A DNA stretch of 45,632 nt from positions 1-45,632 of the forward strand of contig JAMOPB010000237.1 of assembly GCA_027064945.1 (NCBI GenBank), written 5' to 3'. The DNA comes from Candidatus Cloacimonadota bacterium. GTDB taxonomy: Bacteria > Cloacimonadota > Cloacimonadia > Cloacimonadales > TCS61. The translations under genes and the position numbers were made by a program. Below the pieces are notes generated by a model. That model saw only the letters and a program-made list of their open reading frames with translations. It was not told where the DNA came from and searched no databases. Shown here one piece after another: positions 91-45,632 of the stretch. Positions within the stretch are counted from its first letter, which is position 1. Every line of letters begins with the position of its first letter.

Positions 91-1704
91 TTAAGATTTG
101 ATCTCAATTTTTTTATAATTGATTTTAGCAATTTCGTCTACAGGAATTCCGTATTCTCGCAATCTGTTTTCTGTAGTTGCGTCCATAGCCTCAACAGTTT
201 TTAGTTTGCGAGCCGCTTTCATTGAATTTAAAAATTTATTAACTATATCATCAAACGATTTAATTGTTTGAGGAAAACTTTTAATGGTATAATCTGTTAC
301 AGAGTAATTGGTTTTTAATTGTACAGTACTTGCGTTTTTTTTGATGATTGGAAGCTGCATTAATTGATTATTTATAGCGTAAAGATTACCTCCAATTTTA
401 AAATAAGTGTCGTGTATGAGAGCTGGGACGCGTAACTTAGCCACATATGAACGCCCGTTTTCAGGCTTAATTTTGATCTTATATATATAAAAACGTGATC
501 GCCCATTATCTTTAATTTCTTTTTCAATTCCAAGAACATGCATTTTAAAATTTGGATCATCAAGTGATTCAATCAGTTTTTCTATATTACGATCGAGGTT
601 CTGATCGAATTCTACTTTTGTACGCCCAGGATCTGTTATCCATTTAACTCCTGTTGCTTTAAGCGCATTAATACCTATAGTTTTTTTATTATACATTTTA
701 TCAGAATCAATATTTTTCTTATACACGAACTGTTTGCGGTGTTCCGCGATTAATGTATCAAAACTTTGTGGTGTTCCTTCAATTTTGATTTCATTTTTAA
801 GAGCTTCATTTATAAGATTTGCTAATTCATTTGGATCACCTATGTTTATTTGCATATCTGGGTGTTCTGATAAAAATTTGCGAGTAATAGCAACAAGCGA
901 GTCGAGTTCTAATTTATCATCAATTTTTTTATTAAATTTTTTAATTAAAACTTCTTTTATCTTATCTGCTGTAATATTTTCAGGGTTTGGGATGTGTTGA
1001 TTTTGATTTTCAGCAGTTTGTGATAAAATGTTTTCTAATTGCTCATCCCGGTTTGATACAATTTTAGTTAATTTAGTAAATACAGTTTTAGGAACCTGCA
1101 TACTAGAATCAATTGTTAAGGATAAATATTTATTATTGTGGTAAAAAAATACATATCGGTCAGCAATTTGTACTGGAAATCTATATTCGTTTAATTTCAA
1201 ATATAATAATAATTTTTCCAGTTCCTGATATTCATGATTGAAATCTAATACCACTACTGTTTCGCTAGCACCTAGTTGTTTAGCCGCTGTTAGCATATTA
1301 TATATTGAATTTATAAGATTAAAAAAATCAGGTGCTACATATTTAATTCCGCGGCTGTTGACTAATTGCCAGAATGTTTTAGACACAGGACTCAGATCAA
1401 CTATTACTGGAGTATTTATAGAATTTTTAACAATTTTTTCTACTCGGATATTTTTAACTTCTTTTTTCAAATCATTGATATAATTTTGTATGCGGCGCAC
1501 AGCTATACCGCTAATCTGTATTTTATCAGGTACGATTATTGTTCTATAATGTTGCCTAAATTGTTGTTCACTTTCATACCATTTTTTAAAATCTGAAAGA
1601 GAAAAAGGTATATAGATTATATTTACACGAGCTTGCCACCAGTTAGCACGTGTGAATGGTGTAACAGGATTTTTAATGCCTGCTTTAAAATTTAACATAT
1701 CCAT
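91..1704 (-). CDS. hypothetical protein (537 aa)
   Basis: Long uninterrupted ORF. ATG at 1704 has AAAAGGA about 8 nt upstream, and a conserved GCCCCAATCATTAGCA element (1726-1741) lies just upstream. No domain recognised confidently. Confidence 0.55.
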   Translation of the reverse strand: MDMLNFKAGIKNPVTPFTRANWWQARVNIIYIPFSLSDFKKWYESEQQFRQHYRTIIVPDKIQISGIAVRRIQNYINDLKKEVKNIRVEKIVKNSINTPVIVDLSPVSKTFWQLVNSRGIKYVAPDFFNLINSIYNMLTAAKQLGASETVVVLDFNHEYQELEKLLLYLKLNEYRFPVQIADRYVFFYHNNKYLSLTIDSSMQVPKTVFTKLTKIVSNRDEQLENILSQTAENQNQHIPNPENITADKIKEVLIKKFNKKIDDKLELDSLVAITRKFLSEHPDMQINIGDPNELANLINEALKNEIKIEGTPQSFDTLIAEHRKQFVYKKNIDSDKMYNKKTIGINALKATGVKWITDPGRTKVEFDQNLDRNIEKLIESLDDPNFKMHVLGIEKEIKDNGRSRFYIYKIKIKPENGRSYVAKLRVPALIHDTYFKIGGNLYAINNQLMQLPIIKKNASTVQLKTNYSVTDYTIKSFPQTIKSFDDIVNKFLNSMKAARKLKTVEAMDATTENRLREYGIPVDEIAKINYKKIEIKS

Positions 1705-6863: not shown

Positions 6864-8045
6864 TTAAACCAATGTGCGTTCAAATTTATCCATTTTACTC
6901 ATGGTTTTTTGGAAGAAATAGAATAAAATATACATATAAAGTTTACGAAGTTTTAGTTTTTGAGTAGCGGATACTTTCATGAGAGTATTGATTCCAAAAA
7001 TTTCTTTTAACGATTCATCAATAAGTTGTTTAAGATTGTTAGAATAAACTTCGTTTTTACGCATCAATATTTTGTCAACCGTATGTAGTATAGGTAATCT
7101 GTGTATATCGTTTTCTGATTTCACTCCTACAGCCATTAAAAATTGGCTTATTTGATGTTTGATTTCGTTTGGATGATGTTTAATATATTCAATAATTTTA
7201 TCAACTGCTAATTCTGTTACCACAAGTCTTTTGGTTAAAAATAGTTTTTCTGAAATCGGCATATCAGGAAATTTTATAGTAATTGCTTTTTCAAACTTAT
7301 CAACCAACATATCTACAGCACCTTGGAGTAAATGATCTTCAATTTTTAATACTCCTTGGTCGTCTTTTGATAAAGTTTCGATTGCAGCATCTATATTTTT
7401 ATCATTAACATGTTTATAATATAATTGAGCTACATTCTTAAAAACTTGATTTAATCGTCCCCATGTTTGCATAAACAATCTAACAGCCATCTCACTTGGA
7501 TTCTTTTTGATCTGTTCACCATATTTTTTATCAAGAGTATCAATAAAATATGCAATTAGTTCAAGAGGTGTTCTGTTTTTTAGTAACGATTTATTATTAA
7601 GACGTACGCGCTTAATGAATTCTGCTACGTTTTCTTTACATCCGTTTTTAAAATATTTATATTGCATTCCGTTATACAACTTAACAAGTGTTAAGAACAT
7701 AGCAATTTTACGCAATTCATCATCATTTGAATAAAGTCCAATAAAATATAAAATCATAGTTGATTGATAATATGGATCTTCGAACATTCGATTTGTATGA
7801 AACTGAAGTTTTTTAAAATCTTCTTTTATTTTATTAAACGGCACGCCGTACACATCAAACAATTGATCTGGTAATCTATGTGGTATCTGAAATCTGTAAC
7901 AGAAAGTGCTAGCACTTTGGGCATTTAAATAAAGCTGTGAAGTTACCTGTTGTAATTTTTGTTTTAAGTTTGTTCTTAAAGAACTGTTTTTTTTAAATTT
8001 TTCTATTATATAATCAATAGACTCAGCGCCTGTGTAAATAGCCAT
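6864..8045 (-). CDS. hypothetical protein (393 aa, helical)
   Basis: ORF with AAAGGAAAA SD before ATG 8045. It has its own sigma70-like promoter at 8074-8102. Confidence 0.55.
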   Translation of the reverse strand: MAIYTGAESIDYIIEKFKKNSSLRTNLKQKLQQVTSQLYLNAQSASTFCYRFQIPHRLPDQLFDVYGVPFNKIKEDFKKLQFHTNRMFEDPYYQSTMILYFIGLYSNDDELRKIAMFLTLVKLYNGMQYKYFKNGCKENVAEFIKRVRLNNKSLLKNRTPLELIAYFIDTLDKKYGEQIKKNPSEMAVRLFMQTWGRLNQVFKNVAQLYYKHVNDKNIDAAIETLSKDDQGVLKIEDHLLQGAVDMLVDKFEKAITIKFPDMPISEKLFLTKRLVVTELAVDKIIEYIKHHPNEIKHQISQFLMAVGVKSENDIHRLPILHTVDKILMRKNEVYSNNLKQLIDESLKEIFGINTLMKVSATQKLKLRKLYMYILFYFFQKTMSKMDKFERTLV

Positions 8046-8073
8046 CGATTTTCCTTTATAAAAGTTATTTGAA

Positions 8074-8102
8074 ATTATATCAAGTTTTTGGGTTTAGATC
8101 AA
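8074..8102 (-). promoter_or_regulatory. sigma70/sigmaA-type promoter with extended -10 for 6864-8045
   Basis: The minus strand reads TTGATC-17 nt-TATAAT with TG one base upstream of the -10 (TGATATAAT). It lies about 28 nt upstream of ATG 8045, leaving room for the AAAGGA SD. Confidence 0.55.
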
Positions 8103-8182
8103 GATATATCTATAATACCGTCCCAGTATGATTCATAGTTGTATGATATTAAAGATATCAGTTTTCTTGTCCATGAATATTT

Positions 8183-8221
8183 GCGAAAAAGCAAGAAAGC
8201 AGAGGTCTGAACTAGACCTCT
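8183..8221 (-). terminator. weak terminator after the portal gene
   Basis: Stem agaggtct (8201-8208)/agacctct (8214-8221). Only a moderately U-rich tail. Confidence 0.4.
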
Positions 8222-8248
8222 ACTGTTTATCAAAGTTATTTTTGATTT

Positions 8249-10507
8249 TTAATACCCCATTCCGTTTCCTTGTTCTTGAGGCATCATTGCTTGTTGTACT
8301 TGTTGTTGTATAGCTTGACTAGCTTGTAATTTTTCTTGATATTTATCACCTGCTTGTTTTACTGCATCCCAATCAATTATCTTAATAAAGCGTTTTAAAA
8401 TCCATACAGGATCAGTTGGCAAGTTAACAGAATTTAGTAAATTAATAATATTAGTTGCGCTTGATAATGTTGATTCTAAATGTTGTAATACGAGGACAAG
8501 CGGTGGGTTAAGTTTTATGTCTATATATCTTGAAAGCGTTGTAAATTCTGGCTCACGACCATTTAAAATGTATAACTGTTTAGTTACCGCGTTAACTAGT
8601 TCTTCGAGTGATTCATTAATAAATGTTTGAAATGTATCAATTTTTGTAGCAAAAATAATATTGACGTTTACTATCTGTTCTCTTAAATCATATGTGTCAG
8701 TTATACCGAGCATAGGTGACGGTATACCAGAAGCTGCGATTAAATCAGCTTTTAATGTGTCCAATTCATTCATTGGTAATGATCTGTCATGCATAGGCAT
8801 AATTTCTAAATCAACAAAACGTTTTCCGTCTTGCGAAATTGTTACAAAATCTTTATAGTCAGAAACCATTTGGCTGACATCTTTAAGTTTCATAATATCT
8901 TCAAAACTGATAGTTTGGTTTCTTAGCTCGCGTTTAAATTTTTCTATCAATTCGGCATGATTTTTGTGAGAACCTGCTTCGATTGTCCATTTACGAACAA
9001 TTGATGCACGATTCATTCTTGAAATAATGCTTGAAAGTAAGCCGATTAAATAAAGACGTGCCGGAAACAACACAGTATCGAAAATCGATGTTCCATATGG
9101 TGCATATTTATCGATCGGATTGGTAAAATTAACCATTTCATCAGCTGGCACATAGCGAATAGTTATTTTTGCGTAGTTTTCGTATAAATCATATAATAAT
9201 GATTTCAATGCATGGATTGTGTTTTCATCACTAATTAAATTGATTAATTCGTTTATTTTTGTAATTTTATGTTTATTTTTAATTTTTTTAAATACATTTT
9301 TTAACAATTCATCTAATTGATTTCCAGTTTCTGCATTTTTGTCTTCAAAATTCGAACCTGATTTACCAAAAGATTTTTGTATTGTGTCTACAAAATTATA
9401 CTTTTCAGTATTAGCTGATCCGTTTGAAGTTTTCTTGTCTGTCCCTTCAATAACTAAATAACCATATTTATTACCATTTTTTTCAAGTATGATAACATTT
9501 TCAGGTGTAACATATTTTAAGTTGATAAATTTGATTTTTGTTAAATCAAGAGATCTAATTCCTTCAATCATCTGATTTACTGAAATATTATCATTTATTT
9601 CTTCAAATAAAATTTGTGATTCAAAACTAAGATCACCTGATTTTTCCTCCATTAGCAAATTTATCTGTCTGTCGAAATCAAGTTCTGTTTTACTAATTGC
9701 TGTATTCAGTTCTTCCATTATAGATTCATAATATATATTTGAAAGGTCAAATTCCACATTAAGGCCGAGTTTATGTGAATTATAATTGATTTTAATATCT
9801 TCGAGTTTAGAATATTGTTCTGTCAATATTGCTAATGATCCTTTTTTATTTTCTATATCAGCAAACTTGTTTAAATTTATTACTTCAACAAAAAAGTTAC
9901 CTAGCACCAGTTGTTTAGGAAGTATATCATTTTTCAAACGTTTTTGAATATCAAAATAAGCAAAAATCATTTTTACAAGTTTTAACAATACTTGTTTGTC
10001 TGTATCAGCAACTGACTTATCTTGTTCAAGCATTTCGCTATATAAAATATCAATGAATTGTTTTGTATAAGGATTTTTAATCAAAATATTATCAAGATAT
10101 ACTTGTATCATTCTAGTTGCTATATATAATTCATATGGTAATTGAGAATATTGTTTATAGCGTTCTAGTCTTTCTTTTGGAATTGAAAGATTTTCAAACT
10201 GTGTTAAAATAGATTCATCGAGACCTTGTGCTCTCTCTTTAACATCTTCTTGTAAAGATTTAGATTCTTTTTTATCTTTATATACACCAGTTAAAGAACG
10301 TAAATTTATACTTTGTATATTATTTAAAAGCGTGTCGTCTTGAGTATTCATTTTTGTTAATAAATCCTCAAAGGCAGCGTCCAGAGTTTTATCTAGAATC
10401 CCGAGCTTTTTTACAGGATCCAATACATCGCCGCTGTTTTCTTGTTCTATGTTTTCTGTTTGATTTTGATTTTCTGGAATTCCATAGCTATCATCTGTAT
10501 AAGCCAT
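8249..10507 (-). CDS. portal protein (T4 gp20-like pattern)
   Basis: 752-aa ORF. PYGTSIFDTVLFPARLYLIGLLSSIISRMNRASIVRKWTIEAG matches the portal core pattern (YG.S.....R.....L......R..RA..R......G) recalled from gp20-type portals. It has a Q-rich C-terminal tail, and size and context fit. Confidence 0.65.
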   Translation of the reverse strand: MAYTDDSYGIPENQNQTENIEQENSGDVLDPVKKLGILDKTLDAAFEDLLTKMNTQDDTLLNNIQSINLRSLTGVYKDKKESKSLQEDVKERAQGLDESILTQFENLSIPKERLERYKQYSQLPYELYIATRMIQVYLDNILIKNPYTKQFIDILYSEMLEQDKSVADTDKQVLLKLVKMIFAYFDIQKRLKNDILPKQLVLGNFFVEVINLNKFADIENKKGSLAILTEQYSKLEDIKINYNSHKLGLNVEFDLSNIYYESIMEELNTAISKTELDFDRQINLLMEEKSGDLSFESQILFEEINDNISVNQMIEGIRSLDLTKIKFINLKYVTPENVIILEKNGNKYGYLVIEGTDKKTSNGSANTEKYNFVDTIQKSFGKSGSNFEDKNAETGNQLDELLKNVFKKIKNKHKITKINELINLISDENTIHALKSLLYDLYENYAKITIRYVPADEMVNFTNPIDKYAPYGTSIFDTVLFPARLYLIGLLSSIISRMNRASIVRKWTIEAGSHKNHAELIEKFKRELRNQTISFEDIMKLKDVSQMVSDYKDFVTISQDGKRFVDLEIMPMHDRSLPMNELDTLKADLIAASGIPSPMLGITDTYDLREQIVNVNIIFATKIDTFQTFINESLEELVNAVTKQLYILNGREPEFTTLSRYIDIKLNPPLVLVLQHLESTLSSATNIINLLNSVNLPTDPVWILKRFIKIIDWDAVKQAGDKYQEKLQASQAIQQQVQQAMMPQEQGNGMGY

Positions 10508-11019
10508 TAGCTACCCTTTTCTATTGTTTTAAGTATCTGATTTGCATTAAAAATATTTTTTGAATTTTTTATTTCATACGCGTTTATTTTATTATGAAAA
10601 TACTCTTTTAAATAAATATCCAGAGCGCGGCGATCAGAAAAATAGTTATTCATAAGAGATTTATATATTTGAGGATTTATACACGCCTTTACATCCGTTT
10701 CAAAATTTTCAAAGGTTTTAGACACTAGTGCTTTAGTTACCCCATCAGAACCTTGTGTTAAATACACAGGTAAAATATTTTTTTCAAACCAGTATATAAA
10801 TTTTAATTCACAAGTGTTAATAAATAAAGTAAATGCTTTTTCAAAGCTCATACCGGTATGATCTGTTTTAGAATTTAATTTCTTCAAATTGTTCTTCAGT
10901 TTGTTGTTTGTTATCTTCAACTGATAATTCTGTTTTATTAATATCAATATTACTGCTATCGCTGTTATCAGTGTTGCGTTTATCGGTTGCGCAATCCAAT
11001 ACATGATTTGATCCATCAT
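10507..11019 (-). CDS. N-terminally membrane-anchored hypothetical protein (170 aa)
   Basis: AAAGGAG lies 6 nt upstream of ATGATG at 11019. Hydrophobic helix LITAIAVILILI near the N-terminus. Its stop overlaps the portal ATG (TAATG). Confidence 0.5.
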   Translation of the reverse strand: MMDQIMYWIAQPINATLITAIAVILILIKQNYQLKITNNKLKNNLKKLNSKTDHTGMSFEKAFTLFINTCELKFIYWFEKNILPVYLTQGSDGVTKALVSKTFENFETDVKACINPQIYKSLMNNYFSDRRALDIYLKEYFHNKINAYEIKNSKNIFNANQILKTIEKGS

Positions 11020-11149
11020 CTGATTCTCCTTTAATATGAACAGGCCTTAAAGTGGTGTTTTCTTCATTATTTAAATCTAAATCATCATCTTTTCTAAACA
11101 CCAGATCTATAGTAATTTCAGAAAAGTTATCTACAACCAAATCTTCCAT
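10868..11149 (-). CDS. small acidic hypothetical protein (about 93 aa)
   Basis: ATG at 11149 with AAGGA 8 nt upstream (the ORF track starts it at a TTG at 11155). Overlaps the 5' part of 10507-11019 by 152 nt in another frame. Confidence 0.4.
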   Translation of the reverse strand: MEDLVVDNFSEITIDLVFRKDDDLDLNNEENTTLRPVHIKGESDDGSNHVLDCATDKRNTDNSDSSNIDINKTELSVEDNKQQTEEQFEEIKF

Positions 11150-11151
11150 TT

Positions 11152-12186
11152 TCAATATCCTTTTTTATATATATTTTCTACCACATTAGCAATTTCTTCT
11201 TTTGGTTCTAATGATTTCGCTATAGTTGCAGGAGTCTGGAACCACGCGTTTTTGTAGAATGTTGGTTCTTTAAGAGCTGTTAAAGCATCTTGTGCTAACG
11301 GCTGCAATGTTATTCTAACATTCACTGTTAATGGTTGTTGGTATATATTAAAATCAACATCAGTTCCACCGCGATCAAAATTTATATTTGTAATTCCTGC
11401 AAGTTTATAATGCCCCATTCCGTGAGCATCCACTTCGTAAATAAAAGGTGTGCTAAGATCCGTTCCTGTACGCGAAAGTGGGGAACTCATGATAAATATA
11501 ATGATTAGTGGTTCGATTATATATCTCCGAATTGATTTTGGATCACCGCTTGGACTAGTTAATTTTATGCTTAATTGTAAGATATCTTGGACACTAGTAT
11601 TCGTCCACATTTTAGGCATATGGATTCTGTATCCTGAAAAAGCATCAAGTGCTCCAAAAATATCATTAAGATCCATGTCGCCGTTATACTGGTTTCCTGA
11701 AAGCATTTTAAATATTGATGCCGCGTTTCCAGTTGTATTTATCGCTTTTGAAAACACGCCTTTTGTTTTAGTGTCAAGAAATGAAGTTACTAAATCTTTG
11801 ACTCCAGTAGCTCCTTGATCCAATATATTAGAATCGTAATTGTGCGATATGCTATTGTTGATCGCACTGTCTACTGTAGCCACTAATCTAATACCATCAT
11901 ATCCAGTGCTCGGATTATAGGTAGTTAAATATTCTTTATGATTTTCTATTACTTTATTAAACCATTTCATTGGGTGATCAGCATCCGCGTAAGTTAAAAC
12001 ATCATTCACAAATGTTTTCATATCGTTAACGCTTGTAATATTTAAACCTTTATTAAATTTAAGTGTTCTTGGATACAAGTCCACAAACGCAAGATGAGGA
12101 AGAAGTTTATCCTCATACGAATAGCGTTTATTTATATTTTTATTATATCCAGGAACTTTACCTATTGTAAAAAATTTTTTAGGCAT
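11152..12186 (-). CDS. hypothetical tail protein, possible tube-initiator/distal-tail type
   Basis: 344-aa ORF immediately downstream of the tape-measure-like gene. The C-terminal beta-rich segment (WTNTSVQDILQLSIKLTSPSG..FIYEVDAHGMGHYKLAGITNINFDRGG..LTVNVRITLQPL) is reminiscent of the tube fold. Weak. Confidence 0.3.
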   Translation of the reverse strand: MPKKFFTIGKVPGYNKNINKRYSYEDKLLPHLAFVDLYPRTLKFNKGLNITSVNDMKTFVNDVLTYADADHPMKWFNKVIENHKEYLTTYNPSTGYDGIRLVATVDSAINNSISHNYDSNILDQGATGVKDLVTSFLDTKTKGVFSKAINTTGNAASIFKMLSGNQYNGDMDLNDIFGALDAFSGYRIHMPKMWTNTSVQDILQLSIKLTSPSGDPKSIRRYIIEPLIIIFIMSSPLSRTGTDLSTPFIYEVDAHGMGHYKLAGITNINFDRGGTDVDFNIYQQPLTVNVRITLQPLAQDALTALKEPTFYKNAWFQTPATIAKSLEPKEEIANVVENIYKKGY

Positions 12187-40482: not shown

Positions 40483-40968
40483 ATGAACGGTTTAACTTAC
40501 AAACAATGGAATGAAAGTATCAGAAACATTTTAAATAAATATCCGAAGTTGGTAACAGAATTGAAATTACCAAATACGGTAATGCTACAGTTCAGAAAAG
40601 TTGAATCTAAAAAATTAACAATCGATACTTTTTCAAAATTTATAGAAGGGTTAGGATTAAGTTTCGAGATTGTTATCAAAGATAAAGATGGAAACACTGT
40701 AGATACAACTAAACTTGAAAACTTAGCTGCAGACAAAGTTGAAAAAACGAAAAAAGAAACCCTTGCAACCATTGCAGGTGTTTCTACTGTTTCAAAAAAA
40801 GAAGGAAATAACACGTCTGCGCATGTTACAATGCCAGATGCAGATGATGTATTACCAGCAACTGGAGAAGTTAAAATTGGAGAATCTGTGTCTCAAAGCG
40901 AGAATGATTCAGCGCTTGCTGCGTCACCAGAGGTAGAAGTAGATCTCCAAGCAATATTCGGCAACTGA
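40483..40968 (+). CDS. hypothetical protein, possible HTH-like N-terminal domain with acidic tail
   Basis: AAAAGGAGAACAC-ATG. TIDTFSKFIEGLGLSFEIVIKD resembles the end of an XRE-type HTH. Followed by a strong terminator. Confidence 0.45.
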   Translation: MNGLTYKQWNESIRNILNKYPKLVTELKLPNTVMLQFRKVESKKLTIDTFSKFIEGLGLSFEIVIKDKDGNTVDTTKLENLAADKVEKTKKETLATIAGVSTVSKKEGNNTSAHVTMPDADDVLPATGEVKIGESVSQSENDSALAASPEVEVDLQAIFGN

Positions 40969-41007
40969 GTCTAGACCACTTGTGGTCTAGACTCTTTTTG
41001 TTCTTTT
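40967..41007 (+). terminator. intrinsic terminator after 40483-40968
   Basis: 12-bp stem gagtctagacca/tggtctagactc with loop cttg, followed by tttttgttctttt. Confidence 0.85.
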
Positions 41008-41110
41008 AGGGTTTAAATATAGAAATATAATTGGTGTTTGCAAATTACTTATTCATGAGTGTTCATAAGTGGTCAGTGTGTTTTGCTACTCTTTTGAAAA
41101 GTTCGACGAA

Positions 41111-41150
41111 AGCAAGAGAATAGTTATCTCTTGCTTTTTTGCGTTTTTTT
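41111..41150 (+). terminator. second intrinsic terminator about 105 nt downstream
   Basis: 9-bp stem agcaagaga/tctcttgct with loop atagtta, followed by ttttttgcgttttttt. Confidence 0.75.
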
Positions 41151-41295
41151 CAATATAATTAAATTCTTCAAAACCTTCGATTGTTAAATTATTTGTGTGT
41201 GAATTGTGGTTAAAAATTTCACAAAGATGTGCGAGCGAGTAGAAGCGCGCGGCTAATAATTAGCCAAAAAGAAAAAAAATTCAAAAAGGAAATTA

Positions 41296-42636
41296 ATGAG
41301 TTTAAAAATTGATTTTTCCCTTTACGAGATCGATCTTCCTGTAGTGACTTCTTCCAAAATTTTTGCAAATAATAAAAATGAGTATCATGAAGAAGGATTA
41401 TATTCGCAGAAAATATTTGGACCGGTTAAAAATTACGAATGCAAATGTGGTAAGTTAAAAGGTAAATATTATGCAGGTCAAAGATGTGAAGATTGCGGAG
41501 TGCTTTGTGATAGTAATGATTTGCGAATGAAAACATTTGCGCAAATAAATTTACCATCTGATATCTGGGTTGTATTTCCACCTTTAAAACATGTGTTACA
41601 TAAGATCTTTAGCAAAAGAGCAGTTGATAAGATCATGACTTTTGATCCGCATGTGTATGAAGTACATGACTATTTTATATACGATTTAAATGATGCAACT
41701 CTTGTTAATGTGAATAATTTGATAAATGAGGATGAAATTAAAGCAAAAATTTCAGATCAAGCAAAAGAAGAACTGAATATTGATGAACTAGAAAAACTGA
41801 GAGCAGAATTTGTTAATAAATGGGTTTCTGAAAATCTTAATCCAGAGAGGTACTTAATTGATTTTAAAATTTATTCTATAATAAATCTGAAACATTTATT
41901 TGACTATTTGTATGAAAATCATTGGGAAATATTTGAGAAGAAACAAGTTGGTAATCGCGATATAGTTAAATTTGCTTTTGTGAATAAAATACCAGTGACT
42001 CCACCAGATACAAGACCTGTTATTAAGATAGCAAAAAACAGATTTAGTGTTAATGATATTACTAAATCCTATAGTGAAATTTTGAAAAATCTTGAACATA
42101 AATTCATGGATGATATTTATTTACAGATACAAGATGAAACCGAGCGTAATATATATCTTGCAAATGCTGCTAAAAAATTCCAGCGTTCAGTTGACGATAT
42201 TTATAAATTCGCACAAGAAAATCAGCTAGGCGATAAAGAATCCATTTTAAGAAACTCTATTCTTGGAAAAACAGTTGAATTTAGTGGAAGAACTGTCGTA
42301 ACATGCGGTGCAAATGTTCCACCTTATATGATCTCAATTCCTAGAGAATCTGCAAAAGTATTGTTTATTCTCGAAGTGCTAAATTATCTTGTAAATAATG
42401 ATAATGATATTTTAGATATTGATGATATTGCTTCTTTAATGCAATTAATTACGAACAACATTGAGGATGCAGAATTAAAAATTGATGATGATGTATTTGA
42501 TGAAATTTATCAGAAAATTAGACCGCAGCTGCGTGTTATGTTTGAAAGACCTCCAACATTGTTTATGTATAATGACAGCACATTTATTCTAGATGAGCTA
42601 TTTGAAAATAAATTTAAAATGAAGGAAGAACTATGA
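41296..42636 (+). CDS. phage multisubunit RNA polymerase beta-prime, N-terminal half
   Basis: IFGPVKNYECKCGKLKGKYYAGQRCEDCGVLC (beta-prime zinc motif), IPVTPPDTRPV, LRNSILGKTVEFSGRTVV (NLLGKRVDYSGRSV equivalent). It ends at ERPPTLFMYNDSTFILDELFENK ([22 protein letters not shown] equivalent). Confidence 0.9.
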   Translation: MSLKIDFSLYEIDLPVVTSSKIFANNKNEYHEEGLYSQKIFGPVKNYECKCGKLKGKYYAGQRCEDCGVLCDSNDLRMKTFAQINLPSDIWVVFPPLKHVLHKIFSKRAVDKIMTFDPHVYEVHDYFIYDLNDATLVNVNNLINEDEIKAKISDQAKEELNIDELEKLRAEFVNKWVSENLNPERYLIDFKIYSIINLKHLFDYLYENHWEIFEKKQVGNRDIVKFAFVNKIPVTPPDTRPVIKIAKNRFSVNDITKSYSEILKNLEHKFMDDIYLQIQDETERNIYLANAAKKFQRSVDDIYKFAQENQLGDKESILRNSILGKTVEFSGRTVVTCGANVPPYMISIPRESAKVLFILEVLNYLVNNDNDILDIDDIASLMQLITNNIEDAELKIDDDVFDEIYQKIRPQLRVMFERPPTLFMYNDSTFILDELFENKFKMKEEL

Positions 42637-42998
42637 TGACTTTAAAAATAATACTTGCAATTGTTTTTTTTGTTATTTTCTGGATAATTCCTAGTTTACT
42701 AGGTACTTGGATGCTTTTGAGAATTCTTAAAAAAGATTTTTTACCTGTAATCACAAAGTTGAATATTAAAGAGGATGGGCTATCTTTAGCTGATTTAATT
42801 TTTTTAAATATTTTTGTGTTTAGTGTATTATTTGTATTGTTTTTAACGTGGATTCCAGCTGTAAATTTTGTAATGTTATGGTCATTTTTTGATTACAGTG
42901 GCGATTTGAATTTAGATAAAATGTACATTATTAAACCGCGTGATAAGCAAACTAATTCTAATTCAGATTCAGAATATGATGGAATTATTTGTGAATGA
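42633..42998 (+). CDS. 121-aa membrane protein encoded between the two beta-prime halves
   Basis: ATGA overlap with the beta-prime N stop. GAAGGAAG SD. Two or three hydrophobic helices (ILAIVFFVIFWIIPSLLGTWMLL; IFLNIFVFSVLFVLFLTWIPAV). Confidence 0.55.
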   Translation: MMTLKIILAIVFFVIFWIIPSLLGTWMLLRILKKDFLPVITKLNIKEDGLSLADLIFLNIFVFSVLFVLFLTWIPAVNFVMLWSFFDYSGDLNLDKMYIIKPRDKQTNSNSDSEYDGIICE

Positions 42999-43016
42999 TT
43001 TTAAAAAGGGGAACAT

Positions 43017-45011
43017 TTGAAAAAGCAAATACAAACAATCGCAATAAACCCGATGATCGCAAGAAACTATAACGTGGATTTTGACGGCGACGGTATGGGG
43101 ATTACAAATCTCCAATCCGAGCAGGCCAAAAGAGATTTTTATAAATTGTTTATCGCAAATCATGTGAAATTATATTTTGATCCTGATACATACATTCCAG
43201 AGCTAACACATGAAGCTGTTTACAGCTTGTGGGCAGTTACTCATAAAATATCTGAGAATAACTGGCAACAGCGTGCTCCAATCACTGAATTTGAAAATTT
43301 TAAAAGTGTAAAAATTCGCACGTCAAATATAAAAAAATCTATTTTGGAACCTGTGTACGTTAAGAGTGTCGATACAACGATGCCTTGGTTTTGGGCACTA
43401 GTGCACAAAACTATTTATCAATGGGGGTCAGGCAAATTAGCAACTGAGAACGGCGGCGACGGTAAAGAAAAAATACTTTTTGACATTCATAAAGTATATA
43501 ATAAAAAAGCAATTAAAGAGATGTTTGATGCAATTTTTGATATCTCTGTTTCGAATATCGATTTTATGAACAGAATTTGGAAATTGAATCAATTTTTAAA
43601 TGAATTATCAAGTATTTACGATATAGCAATTCCTTCATTTGAAGCTGATGATTTTGTGGTTAGTTCAGAACAGATCGAAGAATTTAAAAAGAATTTCGTA
43701 ACTGAACCAGTGATCGGATTTCATCAGAACATGTATTTATTCTACAAAATGGTCTTACCTTATTTAGAAAACTATAAAAACGGTAATAATATTCTTTATA
43801 AAGTTTTTAAATCAGGTTCAAGACTTAAAGCTGTACAATTAATGAAATCAACTGCAAGTAGCGGTATACCGACTGATATTTATGGTCGCGCAATTAATAG
43901 AAATGTTGCAACATCTCTTTTGGAATCATTAAAGCCGGATGAAATGTTTGATTTAGCAAACGGTGCAAGAATGGCGCTTGCAGCACGTGAGACATTGATT
44001 CCTGCATCGGGCGAAATGCAAAGAATCATTATGAACAGTATCGGATTTATTATGTTGGATCAAACAGTTGAGGATTGTGGATGCGAACATGGTTTTAAGA
44101 TCAAAGTAAAAGATGAAAAGCATTTGAGATCACTACAGAAACGTATCATGGTGGATGGCCATGTTATAGATCCTGAAAAAGACAAACATCTGATAGGTCA
44201 AACTATTGAGATTTTTTCACCAATGACTTGCAAACTGGATGGTTTTAAGATTTGTAAAAAATGTTGGGGGCATTATTTACCGCCTGCTGATAAAAATGGT
44301 ATCAGTTATGTAGGTACTTTGGCAGCAAGTGCAGTTGTTGAACAATTATTACAATCAAGTTTAAGATTGCACCACACAGGTGGTACGTGGGAAATGGAAA
44401 CATTGTATAATGAAATTTTTGATATGATGGATCGCGGTGTAAAATTTTGGAGTGAAGAAAACGACGAAGGTGAGCCAATTACCTATACTGATGCTAATGA
44501 GAATGATTTGAATACATTAAAGGAAATTATGATTCCTAGATATTACGCAGAAGACGAAATCGAGTTCATAGAAGTTGAAAAAGGAAAAATCGCAATTGTT
44601 CCACATGTAAAACTACAAAACCAAGATGCTTCAAGAATATTAAGAGAGTTTGCTACATTAGTGTATGGTAAGCGTGAATTAAATGCAAGTAAAGAAAAAC
44701 ATGAGTTAATAGCTCCTGAAGTATTTTATGAAAAAATTGTGGATATAGTGTTTGAAGGTGCATATTTGCTATCTAACTATATAGAAGTGATAATGAGCGC
44801 ATTATTTTATGATGAAAATATGGAATCTATCAGATACAGTGGACGACCGCCTGTATATCAAACACCATTAAAATCCGTCATACACACTATAGATCCTAAA
44901 TTATCTATTTTTTATAAATTAAGTAATAATGCTCTTAAAAACATTTATCAAGGTGAAAGCAGATATGAGCTAGATCATATGATGTATAAATTAATGAATT
45001 GTTATAGATAA
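43017..45011 (+). CDS. phage multisubunit RNA polymerase beta-prime, C-terminal half (catalytic DFDGD)
   Basis: TTG start after [29 protein letters not shown] equals [39 protein letters not shown] (bridge-helix region). [25 protein letters not shown] (trigger-loop pattern). Confidence 0.9.
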   Translation: [664 protein letters not shown]

Positions 45012-45044
45012 CAAGGTTTAAAACAACCTTGTTTTAATTTTTTT
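45011..45044 (+). terminator. intrinsic terminator after the beta-prime C-half
   Basis: Stem acaaggtt/aaccttgt with loop taaaac, followed by tttaattttttt. Confidence 0.7.
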
Positions 45045-45061
45045 AAAAAAAGGAAGTGTTC

Positions 45062-45247
45062 ATGAGTATATATAAAAAAATAACTGCGGTAATTCTAATG
45101 ATATTGATAATATTGAGTTTAACAGTCCAATACACAACTGACAAATCCACCACTGAAGGATTAATTAAATATGGTATATCACAAATAGACACTTTGATAT
45201 TGTCAACAACATTGATATTATTGAGTTTATGTGAAAAAGAGGATTAA
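45062..45247 (+). CDS. small membrane protein (61 aa from ATG 45062)
   Basis: AAAGGAAG 5 nt before ATG 45062 (the track uses GTG 45056). Two hydrophobic helices. Confidence 0.45.
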   Translation: MSIYKKITAVILMILIILSLTVQYTTDKSTTEGLIKYGISQIDTLILSTTLILLSLCEKED

Positions 45248-45248
45248 A

Positions 45249-45494
45249 ATGGGATTATTGGATTGGTTTCCAGGGTGCGATATTTCACCTGTAGAGATGC
45301 CAGAATTTGACGGCATTTTTAAAGATTTGAAAGATAAACAAGCAGATTATGCGGCCGAAGAAATCCTAAATAAACATTTAAAATCCATAAGCGATGAATT
45401 GCTTTTAAAGTTATTTTTAGCAATTAAGAAGGAGCTGTTGGAAAGAAATCAATTTGAAGAAATTATGAAAAAGGATGATAATGTTCAAAATTAG
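45249..45494 (+). CDS. hypothetical protein (81 aa from ATG 45249)
   Basis: GAGGA 6 nt upstream of ATG 45249, directly after the preceding stop (the track starts at GTG 45231). Confidence 0.45.
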   Translation: MGLLDWFPGCDISPVEMPEFDGIFKDLKDKQADYAAEEILNKHLKSISDELLLKLFLAIKKELLERNQFEEIMKKDDNVQN

Positions 45495-45632
45495 CGGAGA
45501 AAAAATAATCAGATGGGAAATGAATATCGGTTTTCTGATTGCTATATTTGGTGCTTTTTTTATAGACACTAGTACGCTAAAAGGACTGATTATGTCGTGT
45601 ACAATGACAATAGCTGCTGGAATTTTTATGAG
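45481..45632 (+). CDS. membrane protein, 5' partial (runs off the window)
   Basis: ATG 45481 with AAAGGA upstream. MFKISGEKIIRWEMNIGFLIAIFGAFFIDTS... is hydrophobic. Overlaps the preceding stop. Confidence 0.35.
   Translation, partial: MFKISGEKIIRWEMNIGFLIAIFGAFFIDTSTLKGLIMSCTMTIAAGIFM

Follow-up and report, generated by a model that had tools for sequence, protein, structure and literature searches.

Both the virion (vRNAP) and the non-virion (nvRNAP) RNA polymerases (RNAPs) of jumbo phages have a largest subunit, beta-prime, that is cut after the barrel, as it is in cyanobacteria, while the archaeal split lies at yet another site, according to a 2020 review (PMC7598289). The N polypeptide holds the catalytic barrel in the account of Iyer, Aravind and colleagues (PMC7824862), and in the phiKZ nvRNAP the DFDGD motif lies at residues 417-421 of gp55, the N part (PMC7618050); phages of the mReC clade encode an uncut beta-prime (PMC7481178). 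Here we analysed a phage beta-prime gene on a 45,632-nucleotide (nt) stretch of DNA filed under Candidatus Cloacimonadota (GenBank assembly GCA_027064945.1, contig JAMOPB010000237.1). This whole stretch, called the window below, is the entire 45.6-kb contig C237 of a 2.43-Mb metagenome-assembled genome (MAG) of 493 contigs. Its beta-prime gene is cut ahead of DFDGD, and an open reading frame (ORF) for a predicted membrane protein of 121 amino acids (aa) occupies the slot between the two halves. We read the locus as a true gene fission of the beta-prime of a phage multisubunit RNAP, cut inside the catalytic barrel, with the slot ORF as cargo and not a polymerase subunit, and we give this reading a probability of roughly 0.85.

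Position and conservation of the cut

The two halves are encoded on the forward strand and separated by 380 bp. The features on which the analysis turns are the following.

41296-42636, + strand: N half of beta-prime, 446 aa, ending ...ERPPTLFMYNDSTFILDELFENKFKMKEEL (ORF list, Pfam, PHROG, PDB alignment)
42622-42636, + strand: coupling signal of the 121-aa ORF, AAGGAAG 4 nt 5' of the ATG at 42633
42633-42998, + strand: 121-aa predicted membrane protein, accessory gene (ORF list, hydropathy, AlphaFold, relatives, and the ratio of nonsynonymous to synonymous substitution, dN/dS)
43006-43019, + strand: start signal of the C half, made up of an AAGGGG resembling a Shine-Dalgarno (SD) sequence, a 5-nt spacer and TTG (sequence reading)
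43017-45011, + strand: C half of beta-prime, 664 aa (ORF list, Pfam, PHROG, PDB alignment)

From a Zn-ribbon (C49, C51, C64, C67) and the clamp region, the N half extends into the double-psi beta-barrel, the opening part of which it encodes as far as ERPPTLFMYNDSTFILDELFENK, and it closes with a 7-residue tail. The C half brings the final barrel strands, the bridge-helix/trigger-loop region and a C-terminal module, with DFDGD at its residues 21-25 (codons 43077-43091). Zn-ribbon cysteines and DFDGD motif are unbroken in the split protein, and PHROG RNAP families match the N half as well as the C half. At the first junction the ATG of the 121-aa ORF (42633-42635) shares bases with the TGA of the N half (42634-42636) in an ATGA overlap; at the second, TTG 43017 is the first start codon past an in-frame stop at 43002-43004, and the related locus L028 has AAAGGAG and then TTG at the equivalent position. 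A first-pass annotation, made by a model from the letters alone, had drawn this same layout, with its ATGA overlap, 380-bp spacer and hydrophobic 121-aa ORF, and had credited the C half with an SD sequence and TTG start of its own; on both counts our reading agrees, AAGGGG lying 5 nt before the TTG.

Profile matches and alignments to PDB chain sequences place the break within the active-site domain. Pfam Rpb1 domain 1 matches the N half, while Rpb1 domain 2 (PF00623, 166 positions) is divided between the two ORFs, the N half covering profile positions 1-109 and residues 6-45 of the C half covering positions 125-164. When the halves were searched against PDB chains with phmmer, the N half aligned through residue 424 with the ...NRAPTLHR segment of bacterial beta-prime (to 420 for 8x6f_D), its top match being cyanobacterial gamma (8syi_D, E 1.3e-23). 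Residues 7-45 of the C half aligned with B. subtilis 435-473 (6wvj_D) and its remainder with the bridge-helix/trigger-loop region, the top match here being AR9 gp154 (7s00_D, E 1.2e-11). Counted in the alignment from the DFDGD aspartates, the break corresponds to the bond between K445 and A446 of E. coli beta-prime, or R434 and A435 of B. subtilis, some 15 residues ahead of the DFDGD metal loop, which thus belongs to the C half. In terms of barrel topology, we take the break to lie after the PTLH strand and the hairpin next to it, and before the strand leading into the NxDFDGD loop. A MAFFT alignment in which the two halves were joined virtually and set against uncut homologues and the beta-prime of the host was contiguous, with no homologous residue missing; the only extra residues at the junction were 7 on the tail of the N half and 6 on the head of the C half, and these short tails vary freely across relatives. 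The Pfam, PDB and MAFFT alignments thereby bear out the earlier claim of a break inside the active-site domain, just 5' of the metal loop, with nothing lost.

Both halves evolve under strong constraint, with dN/dS of about 0.1 for the N half (against L028) and about 0.05 for the C half. We collected 17 homologues of the N half (83-28% identity), every one of which carries an ER(P/Q)P.L...-type motif near its C end; two of them, P0016 and P0017, have an additional tail of about 80 aa beyond it. The loci surveyed here were the contigs of these homologues together with 80 metagenomic loci retrieved using their alignment. About 20 independent loci, from relatives at 83-29% identity, have a separate downstream C-half ORF with DFDGD at residue 21-28 (residue 44 in L045), and the halves can lie very close together: 38 bp apart in L015, 11-23 bp in L021/L030 and 58 bp in L023, with an 11-nt overlap in L054. 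Stop, SD sequence and start are visible at the junctions that were read directly (L015, L021, L023). The clade of the window consists of eight sequences (50-83% identity), all eight cut at the window site, and the same holds for another clade, which is about 30% identical. Two further clades are uncut, with proteins of 1023-1081 aa that align straight across the junction; the uncut proteins of group C are about 30% identical to the N half of the window. A scan of a viral contig collection with the C half returned no relatives.

In a clade further removed, the cut falls some 35 residues upstream of the window site, ahead of the NRQPSL strand, so that DFDGD falls at about residue 56 of the C part. 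This clade (L067-L090 and L104-L106, for example L074 3846-5066 and 5086-7065) comes from sludge and digester metagenomes; its N part ends with an acidic ...RRRKIEQE..DAFD tail, its C part begins before NRQPSL, and its loop reads (D/N)ADxDGD. The cut site of these sequences is another undescribed point.

A maximum-likelihood tree, built quickly from the N region, has the uncut clades nested between cut ones. An approximately unbiased (AU) test of the monophyly of all sequences cut at the window site gave a borderline p = 0.046 for a group that was picked after inspection of the tree. The pattern suggests, without establishing it, either repeated fission or fission followed by re-fusion, and cut and uncut beta-prime could also be paralogues within one genome.

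The slot and its cargo

The 121-aa ORF has two strongly hydrophobic blocks on a Kyte-Doolittle plot, and AlphaFold models the protein (predicted local distance difference test score, pLDDT, 70) with helices spanning residues 2-41, 52-72 and 75-89, the acidic C-tail being disordered; three membrane helices are predicted. Only three relatives were recovered in a profile-free scan of 1.8 billion representative proteins, of 117 aa (54%), 114 aa (50%) and 92 aa (34%, E 7e-4), and the motifs W-x-P-x-x-N and YIIKP are invariant across this family. The 114- and 117-aa orthologues occupy the same slot in L019 and L028/L029, the nearest relatives of the window, and the 4-nt ATGA overlap with the N half is repeated in L028/L029; a synteny check, which the first-pass annotation had proposed, placed the gene in this slot in these loci only. 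The gene for the 92-aa homologue is found 5' of a clamp-loader gene and not close to polymerase genes. Compared with its orthologues in the slot (48-53% identity in this comparison), the 121-aa ORF has a dN/dS of 0.33-0.46, which marks it as a real gene under purifying selection, and it evolves about five times faster than the beta-prime halves. No meaningful match was found in Pfam, PHROGs, NCBIfam, PADLOC or by tblastn against phages, a word-indexed protein search returned the self-match alone, and neither a promoter nor a terminator of its own was found.

The same slot is filled differently in other phages. It is empty in L015 and L021/L030, which form a sister lineage on the tree, and holds two ankyrin-repeat proteins in L013. 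L025 and L039 carry ORFs of about 500 aa, the former with weak, sub-cutoff Pfam matches to Vsr and PD-(D/E)XK nucleases. Slot ORFs of this size with zinc-finger-like CxxC motifs lie at:

L025 7553-9085
L039 5345-6853
L059 8151-9608

These ORFs may be free-standing homing endonucleases; if they are, they offer a possible route by which the fission slot arose or stays open. Group B, a sister clade at about 30% identity, has a recurrent, conserved and soluble slot protein of 90-130 aa, encoded at:

L017 7296-7634
L033 1231-1518
L034 3063-3359
L035 6269-6541
L058 7310-7585
L059 7006-7278
L041 6322-6633
L056 6238-6552
L039 7145-7534

The group B proteins fall into two sets by BLAST, and Pfam gave no match for the two that were searched (L035, L041). 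They might represent an extra polymerase subunit or an assembly factor.

Because its presence is patchy, unrelated genes fill the slot elsewhere and its homologue sits by a clamp loader, we read the 121-aa ORF as an accessory gene riding in a variable slot, an optional passenger that is co-expressed with the polymerase genes. It resembles phage morons in being present or absent among close relatives, in sharing its slot with unrelated genes and in having a homologue at another locus in another phage; it differs from them in that neither of these signals turned up and it relies instead on coupling of its translation to the upstream gene, the signals in question being a promoter and a terminator. 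The first-pass annotation had singled out a membrane gene between polymerase halves as odd. The gene itself is real; we read it as optional cargo in a variable slot and not as a feature of the split.

It is improbable that the 121-aa protein is instead a functional partner of the polymerase, a membrane tether or assembly chaperone that joins the barrel halves. Translational coupling through ATGA, seen in the window and again in L028/L029, would suit such a partner, as would the different conserved small protein that group B phages keep in the same slot, possibly a slot-encoded assembly factor. Yet the sister lineage does without the 121-aa protein while its halves are directly adjacent and 71% identical to the N half of the window. 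The roughly fivefold faster evolution of the protein and the position of its sole distant homologue beside a clamp-loader gene rather than a polymerase gene also count against the partner role, and the 121-aa protein is unrelated to the slot proteins of group B. We are equally doubtful of the wider proposal that slot genes are tied to the assembly of a two-chain barrel, with the membrane protein tethering or nucleating co-translational assembly and the ~100-aa group B protein acting as an assembly subunit.

As accessory cargo, the 121-aa protein might act in superinfection exclusion or in takeover of the host membrane; both are guesses that we do not hold strongly, and a holin-like role is less likely. 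Class I holins are small proteins with three membrane helices and a charged, hydrophilic C-terminal tail; for the 121-aa protein, three helices and a disordered acidic tail are predicted from a model of pLDDT 70. It matches no holin family, and its gene has RNAP genes for neighbours rather than an endolysin, the distant homologue lying by a clamp loader.

Fission, intron, intein or decay

A gene interrupted by an ORF close to its catalytic loop invites the explanation that a self-splicing intron (group I or II), or a degenerate form of it, makes up the 380-bp insert and carries the ORF, and that the mature mRNA encodes a single beta-prime. Homing-endonuclease introns do target this region, as the HNH intron within the DYDG/D loop of AR9 g270/g271 shows, and the slot of L025 and L039 holds nuclease-like ORFs. 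We nevertheless regard an intron here as very unlikely. An E-value scan of 41000-45632 against Rfam with permissive filters gave no match, and the fold of the spacer RNA is as stable as that of shuffled controls (z = -0.06). The slot ORF of the window is a membrane protein and not an endonuclease, and the N half has its own stop and the C half its own SD sequence and start, which is unlike intron-split exons. In relatives with the identical cut the halves are -11 to 58 bp apart, a distance into which no ribozyme could fit, and the freedom of the 7- and 6-residue junction tails to vary also counts against an intron. The genuine split that the first-pass annotation had favoured is upheld by these results, the spliced intron that it had named as the competing explanation having been looked for and not found.

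Less probable still is protein trans-splicing, in which a split intein would unite the translated halves. Such an element is brought to mind by L100, L102 and L103, whose sequences resemble split inteins (DFDGD directly followed by SVIGAV..., with a stop 42 aa on). At the window junction the 7 and 6 extra residues are far too short for the pieces of a split intein, and inspection, with no dedicated intein profile search, found neither a Hint block starting with Cys/Ser/Thr nor an HN-C/S/T junction, nor on either side an additional domain of some 100 aa.

The three loci just mentioned form an observation in their own right. At L100 360-1679 and at L102 and L103 4941-6293, the N ORF passes NADFDGD, goes on as SVIGAVELNIEGKKK... 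and stops 42 residues later; the start of a 658-aa ORF 1.2 kb downstream (L102 7525-9501) is not polymerase sequence. The arrangement resembles an intein with an atypical split that sits immediately behind the catalytic loop.

That the beta-prime gene is a decaying pseudogene or an assembly artefact, for which the fragmented MAG is the one argument beyond the interruption itself, is scarcely credible given that the split architecture recurs in about 20 independent loci, that purifying selection acts strongly on both halves (dN/dS 0.05-0.10), and that the intact Zn-ribbon cysteines and DFDGD argue against decay.

Several points weigh against the reading of a true fission with cargo in its slot. 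Splicing is excluded on comparative and sequence arguments, and the assembly and activity of a two-chain barrel are inferred. AlphaFold gave the uncut homologue L036 (1024 aa, 28-row alignment) a mean pLDDT of 71.8 but values below 50 over residues 376-454; this span is exactly the barrel and metal-loop stretch, which makes the model unusable for judging whether the cut falls in a loop. The phage genome is scattered over fragments of the MAG bin, and the inventory of its RNAP subunits is partial. Finally, the 121-aa ORF matches no family in any library, so its role is a guess, and the close coupling of its start to the N-half stop through ATGA may be a sign that the two are functionally connected.

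Genomic context and comparison with described polymerases

Outside the split gene itself, three further features delimit the locus.

40967-40994 and 41108-41138, + strand: terminator-like hairpins 5' of the N half, marking the 5' bound of the transcription unit
45010-45033, + strand: terminator-like hairpin followed by a T run, immediately 3' of the C-half stop
45506-45632, + strand: contig end shared with contig C377 of the same MAG, the last 127 bases being identical to the C377 end

A hairpin scan of the locus found no terminator-like hairpin between the beta-prime halves, and the halves are probably co-transcribed in one unit. Contig C377 encodes a beta N part (424 aa) and a beta C part (659 aa; PF00562, E 2e-23), so the beta homologue of this phage, like that of phiKZ/AR9-type enzymes, is cut into N and C polypeptides. 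The 127-base identity joins the window to C377 and gives the operon order beta-prime N, slot, beta-prime C, small ORFs, beta N, beta C, which metagenomic relatives keep as well. The window contains a large terminase, a T4-type baseplate protein and numerous orphan ORFs, a phage gene content, and its G+C of 32% is similar to that of the remaining bin. The bin holds two related phage strains: a C-half fragment of beta-prime on C431 is 89% identical to that of the window, and C431 and C377 share 86-87% identity in their beta N and beta C parts.

The search of the rest of the genome that the first-pass annotation had suggested thus yielded the beta halves on C377, and it also yielded pieces of a second, highly divergent and incomplete RNAP set: a beta-prime N-like gene on C493, a beta-prime C-like one on C227, and window 91-1701. 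The C493 gene (3664-4956, + strand) encodes a divergent 430-aa protein, adjoins tail-fibre-like genes and apparently holds the whole barrel. At the DFDGD position it reads ...SPIGGDSMEN, apparently lacking two of the three aspartates; the gene may belong to a virion RNAP set or be an inactive paralogue. Window 91-1701 (- strand) encodes 536 aa among baseplate genes, has no Pfam match and matches phrog_3148, annotated 'RNA polymerase beta subunit', over profile positions 495-592 of 1424 (E 1.8e-10); it is probably a piece of the second, perhaps virion, RNAP. On C227, 597-1736 (- strand) encodes 379 aa of a beta-prime C-like fragment, which shares 25% identity with the C half of the window and has no DFDGD piece nearby. 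No second DFDGD-bearing phage gene was found in the MAG. The same contig C227 carries, at 7413-11798 (+ strand), a ribonucleotide reductase gene broken by an intein-like block (CFTGDT...VHNC) and a 424-aa ORF resembling a homing endonuclease.

Under the fission reading, the genes from beta-prime N through the slot, beta-prime C and the small ORFs to beta N and beta C would be transcribed as a single operon, and each beta-prime half would be translated from its own start codon. The halves would then assemble non-covalently, so that barrel and active site are completed by two chains, by analogy with phiKZ/AR9 and cyanobacteria, where the chains are cut at other points. Fission would leave a short intergenic slot where unrelated cargo genes can land, the cargo here being a putative early-expressed accessory inner-membrane protein, ATGA-coupled to the N half.

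No phage and no paper with the cut point of the window was found among deposited phages and the literature, where absence is no proof of absence, and a literature search for this phage clade found no paper either. The cut point is new among split phage RNAPs, widespread in environmental phages and undescribed as far as these searches reach; an identical split in a described phage locus, which the first-pass annotation had said would remove the novelty, did not turn up.

The closest likeness is to phiKZ (gp55 and gp74) and AR9 (gp270 and gp154), in which a phage-encoded beta-prime is likewise made as N and C polypeptides and beta is cut too. Their cut follows the barrel and leaves DFDGD in the N part, whereas DFDGD of the window lies in the C part. 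Whether phiKZ and AR9 share the cut point had been left open by the first-pass annotation; they do not, gp55 and gp270 carrying the metal loop. The translation of AR9 gp270, the N part, runs ...NRNPTISIG...SGDYDG up to an HNH-carrying intron and resumes with D...; DFDGD lies at residue 424 of the N-part gene in Yersinia phage YerA41 and at residue 407 in Fusobacterium phage JD-Fnp1. The window phage has its four RNAP genes in one operon, whereas the two beta-prime genes of AR9 are about 100 kb apart, and the identity of the window halves to phiKZ/AR9-type enzymes is only about 25-28%.

Like the HNH introns of AR9 g270/g271 and phiKZ gp55/gp56, ORF-bearing DNA interrupts the window gene within a few codons of the catalytic loop. 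The AR9 and phiKZ interruptions are spliced (the AR9 coding sequence is annotated as joined) and encode homing endonucleases, while the window has no ribozyme signal, its own translation signals and a membrane ORF. Uncut phage beta-primes, found in the mReC phages, in Rhizobium phage RHph_Y65 and Cobetia phage Carin-5, which we also found to have a single-chain subunit, and in the metagenomic group C, are homologous to the split enzyme but single polypeptides. If the split enzyme is active, the interleaving of cut and uncut forms on the tree would bear on the debated question of whether the split state of phage RNAPs is primitive or derived, and the locus shows fission creating a slot that then gathers cargo genes.

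The cyanobacterial and plastid gamma (rpoC1) and beta-prime (rpoC2) chains are also a natural fission of beta-prime, and there the chains co-assemble. The cut of cyanobacterial gamma (about 625 aa) follows the barrel and coincides with the jumbo-phage site (PMC7598289), in contrast to the window cut, which precedes DFDGD. Should the enzyme be active, the active-site barrel of a multisubunit RNAP could be completed from two polypeptides, which would bear on barrel folding and evolution and on the design of split-polymerase tools. Taken together, this analysis adds a new architecture and leaves the picture of phage RNAP function unchanged: the splits of the largest subunit covered here, in the jumbo-phage vRNAP and nvRNAP and in cyanobacterial gamma and beta-prime, leave the double-psi beta-barrel whole, whereas strong purifying selection has maintained, throughout a clade of large phages from the environment, a barrel cut one strand before the Mg-binding aspartate triad.

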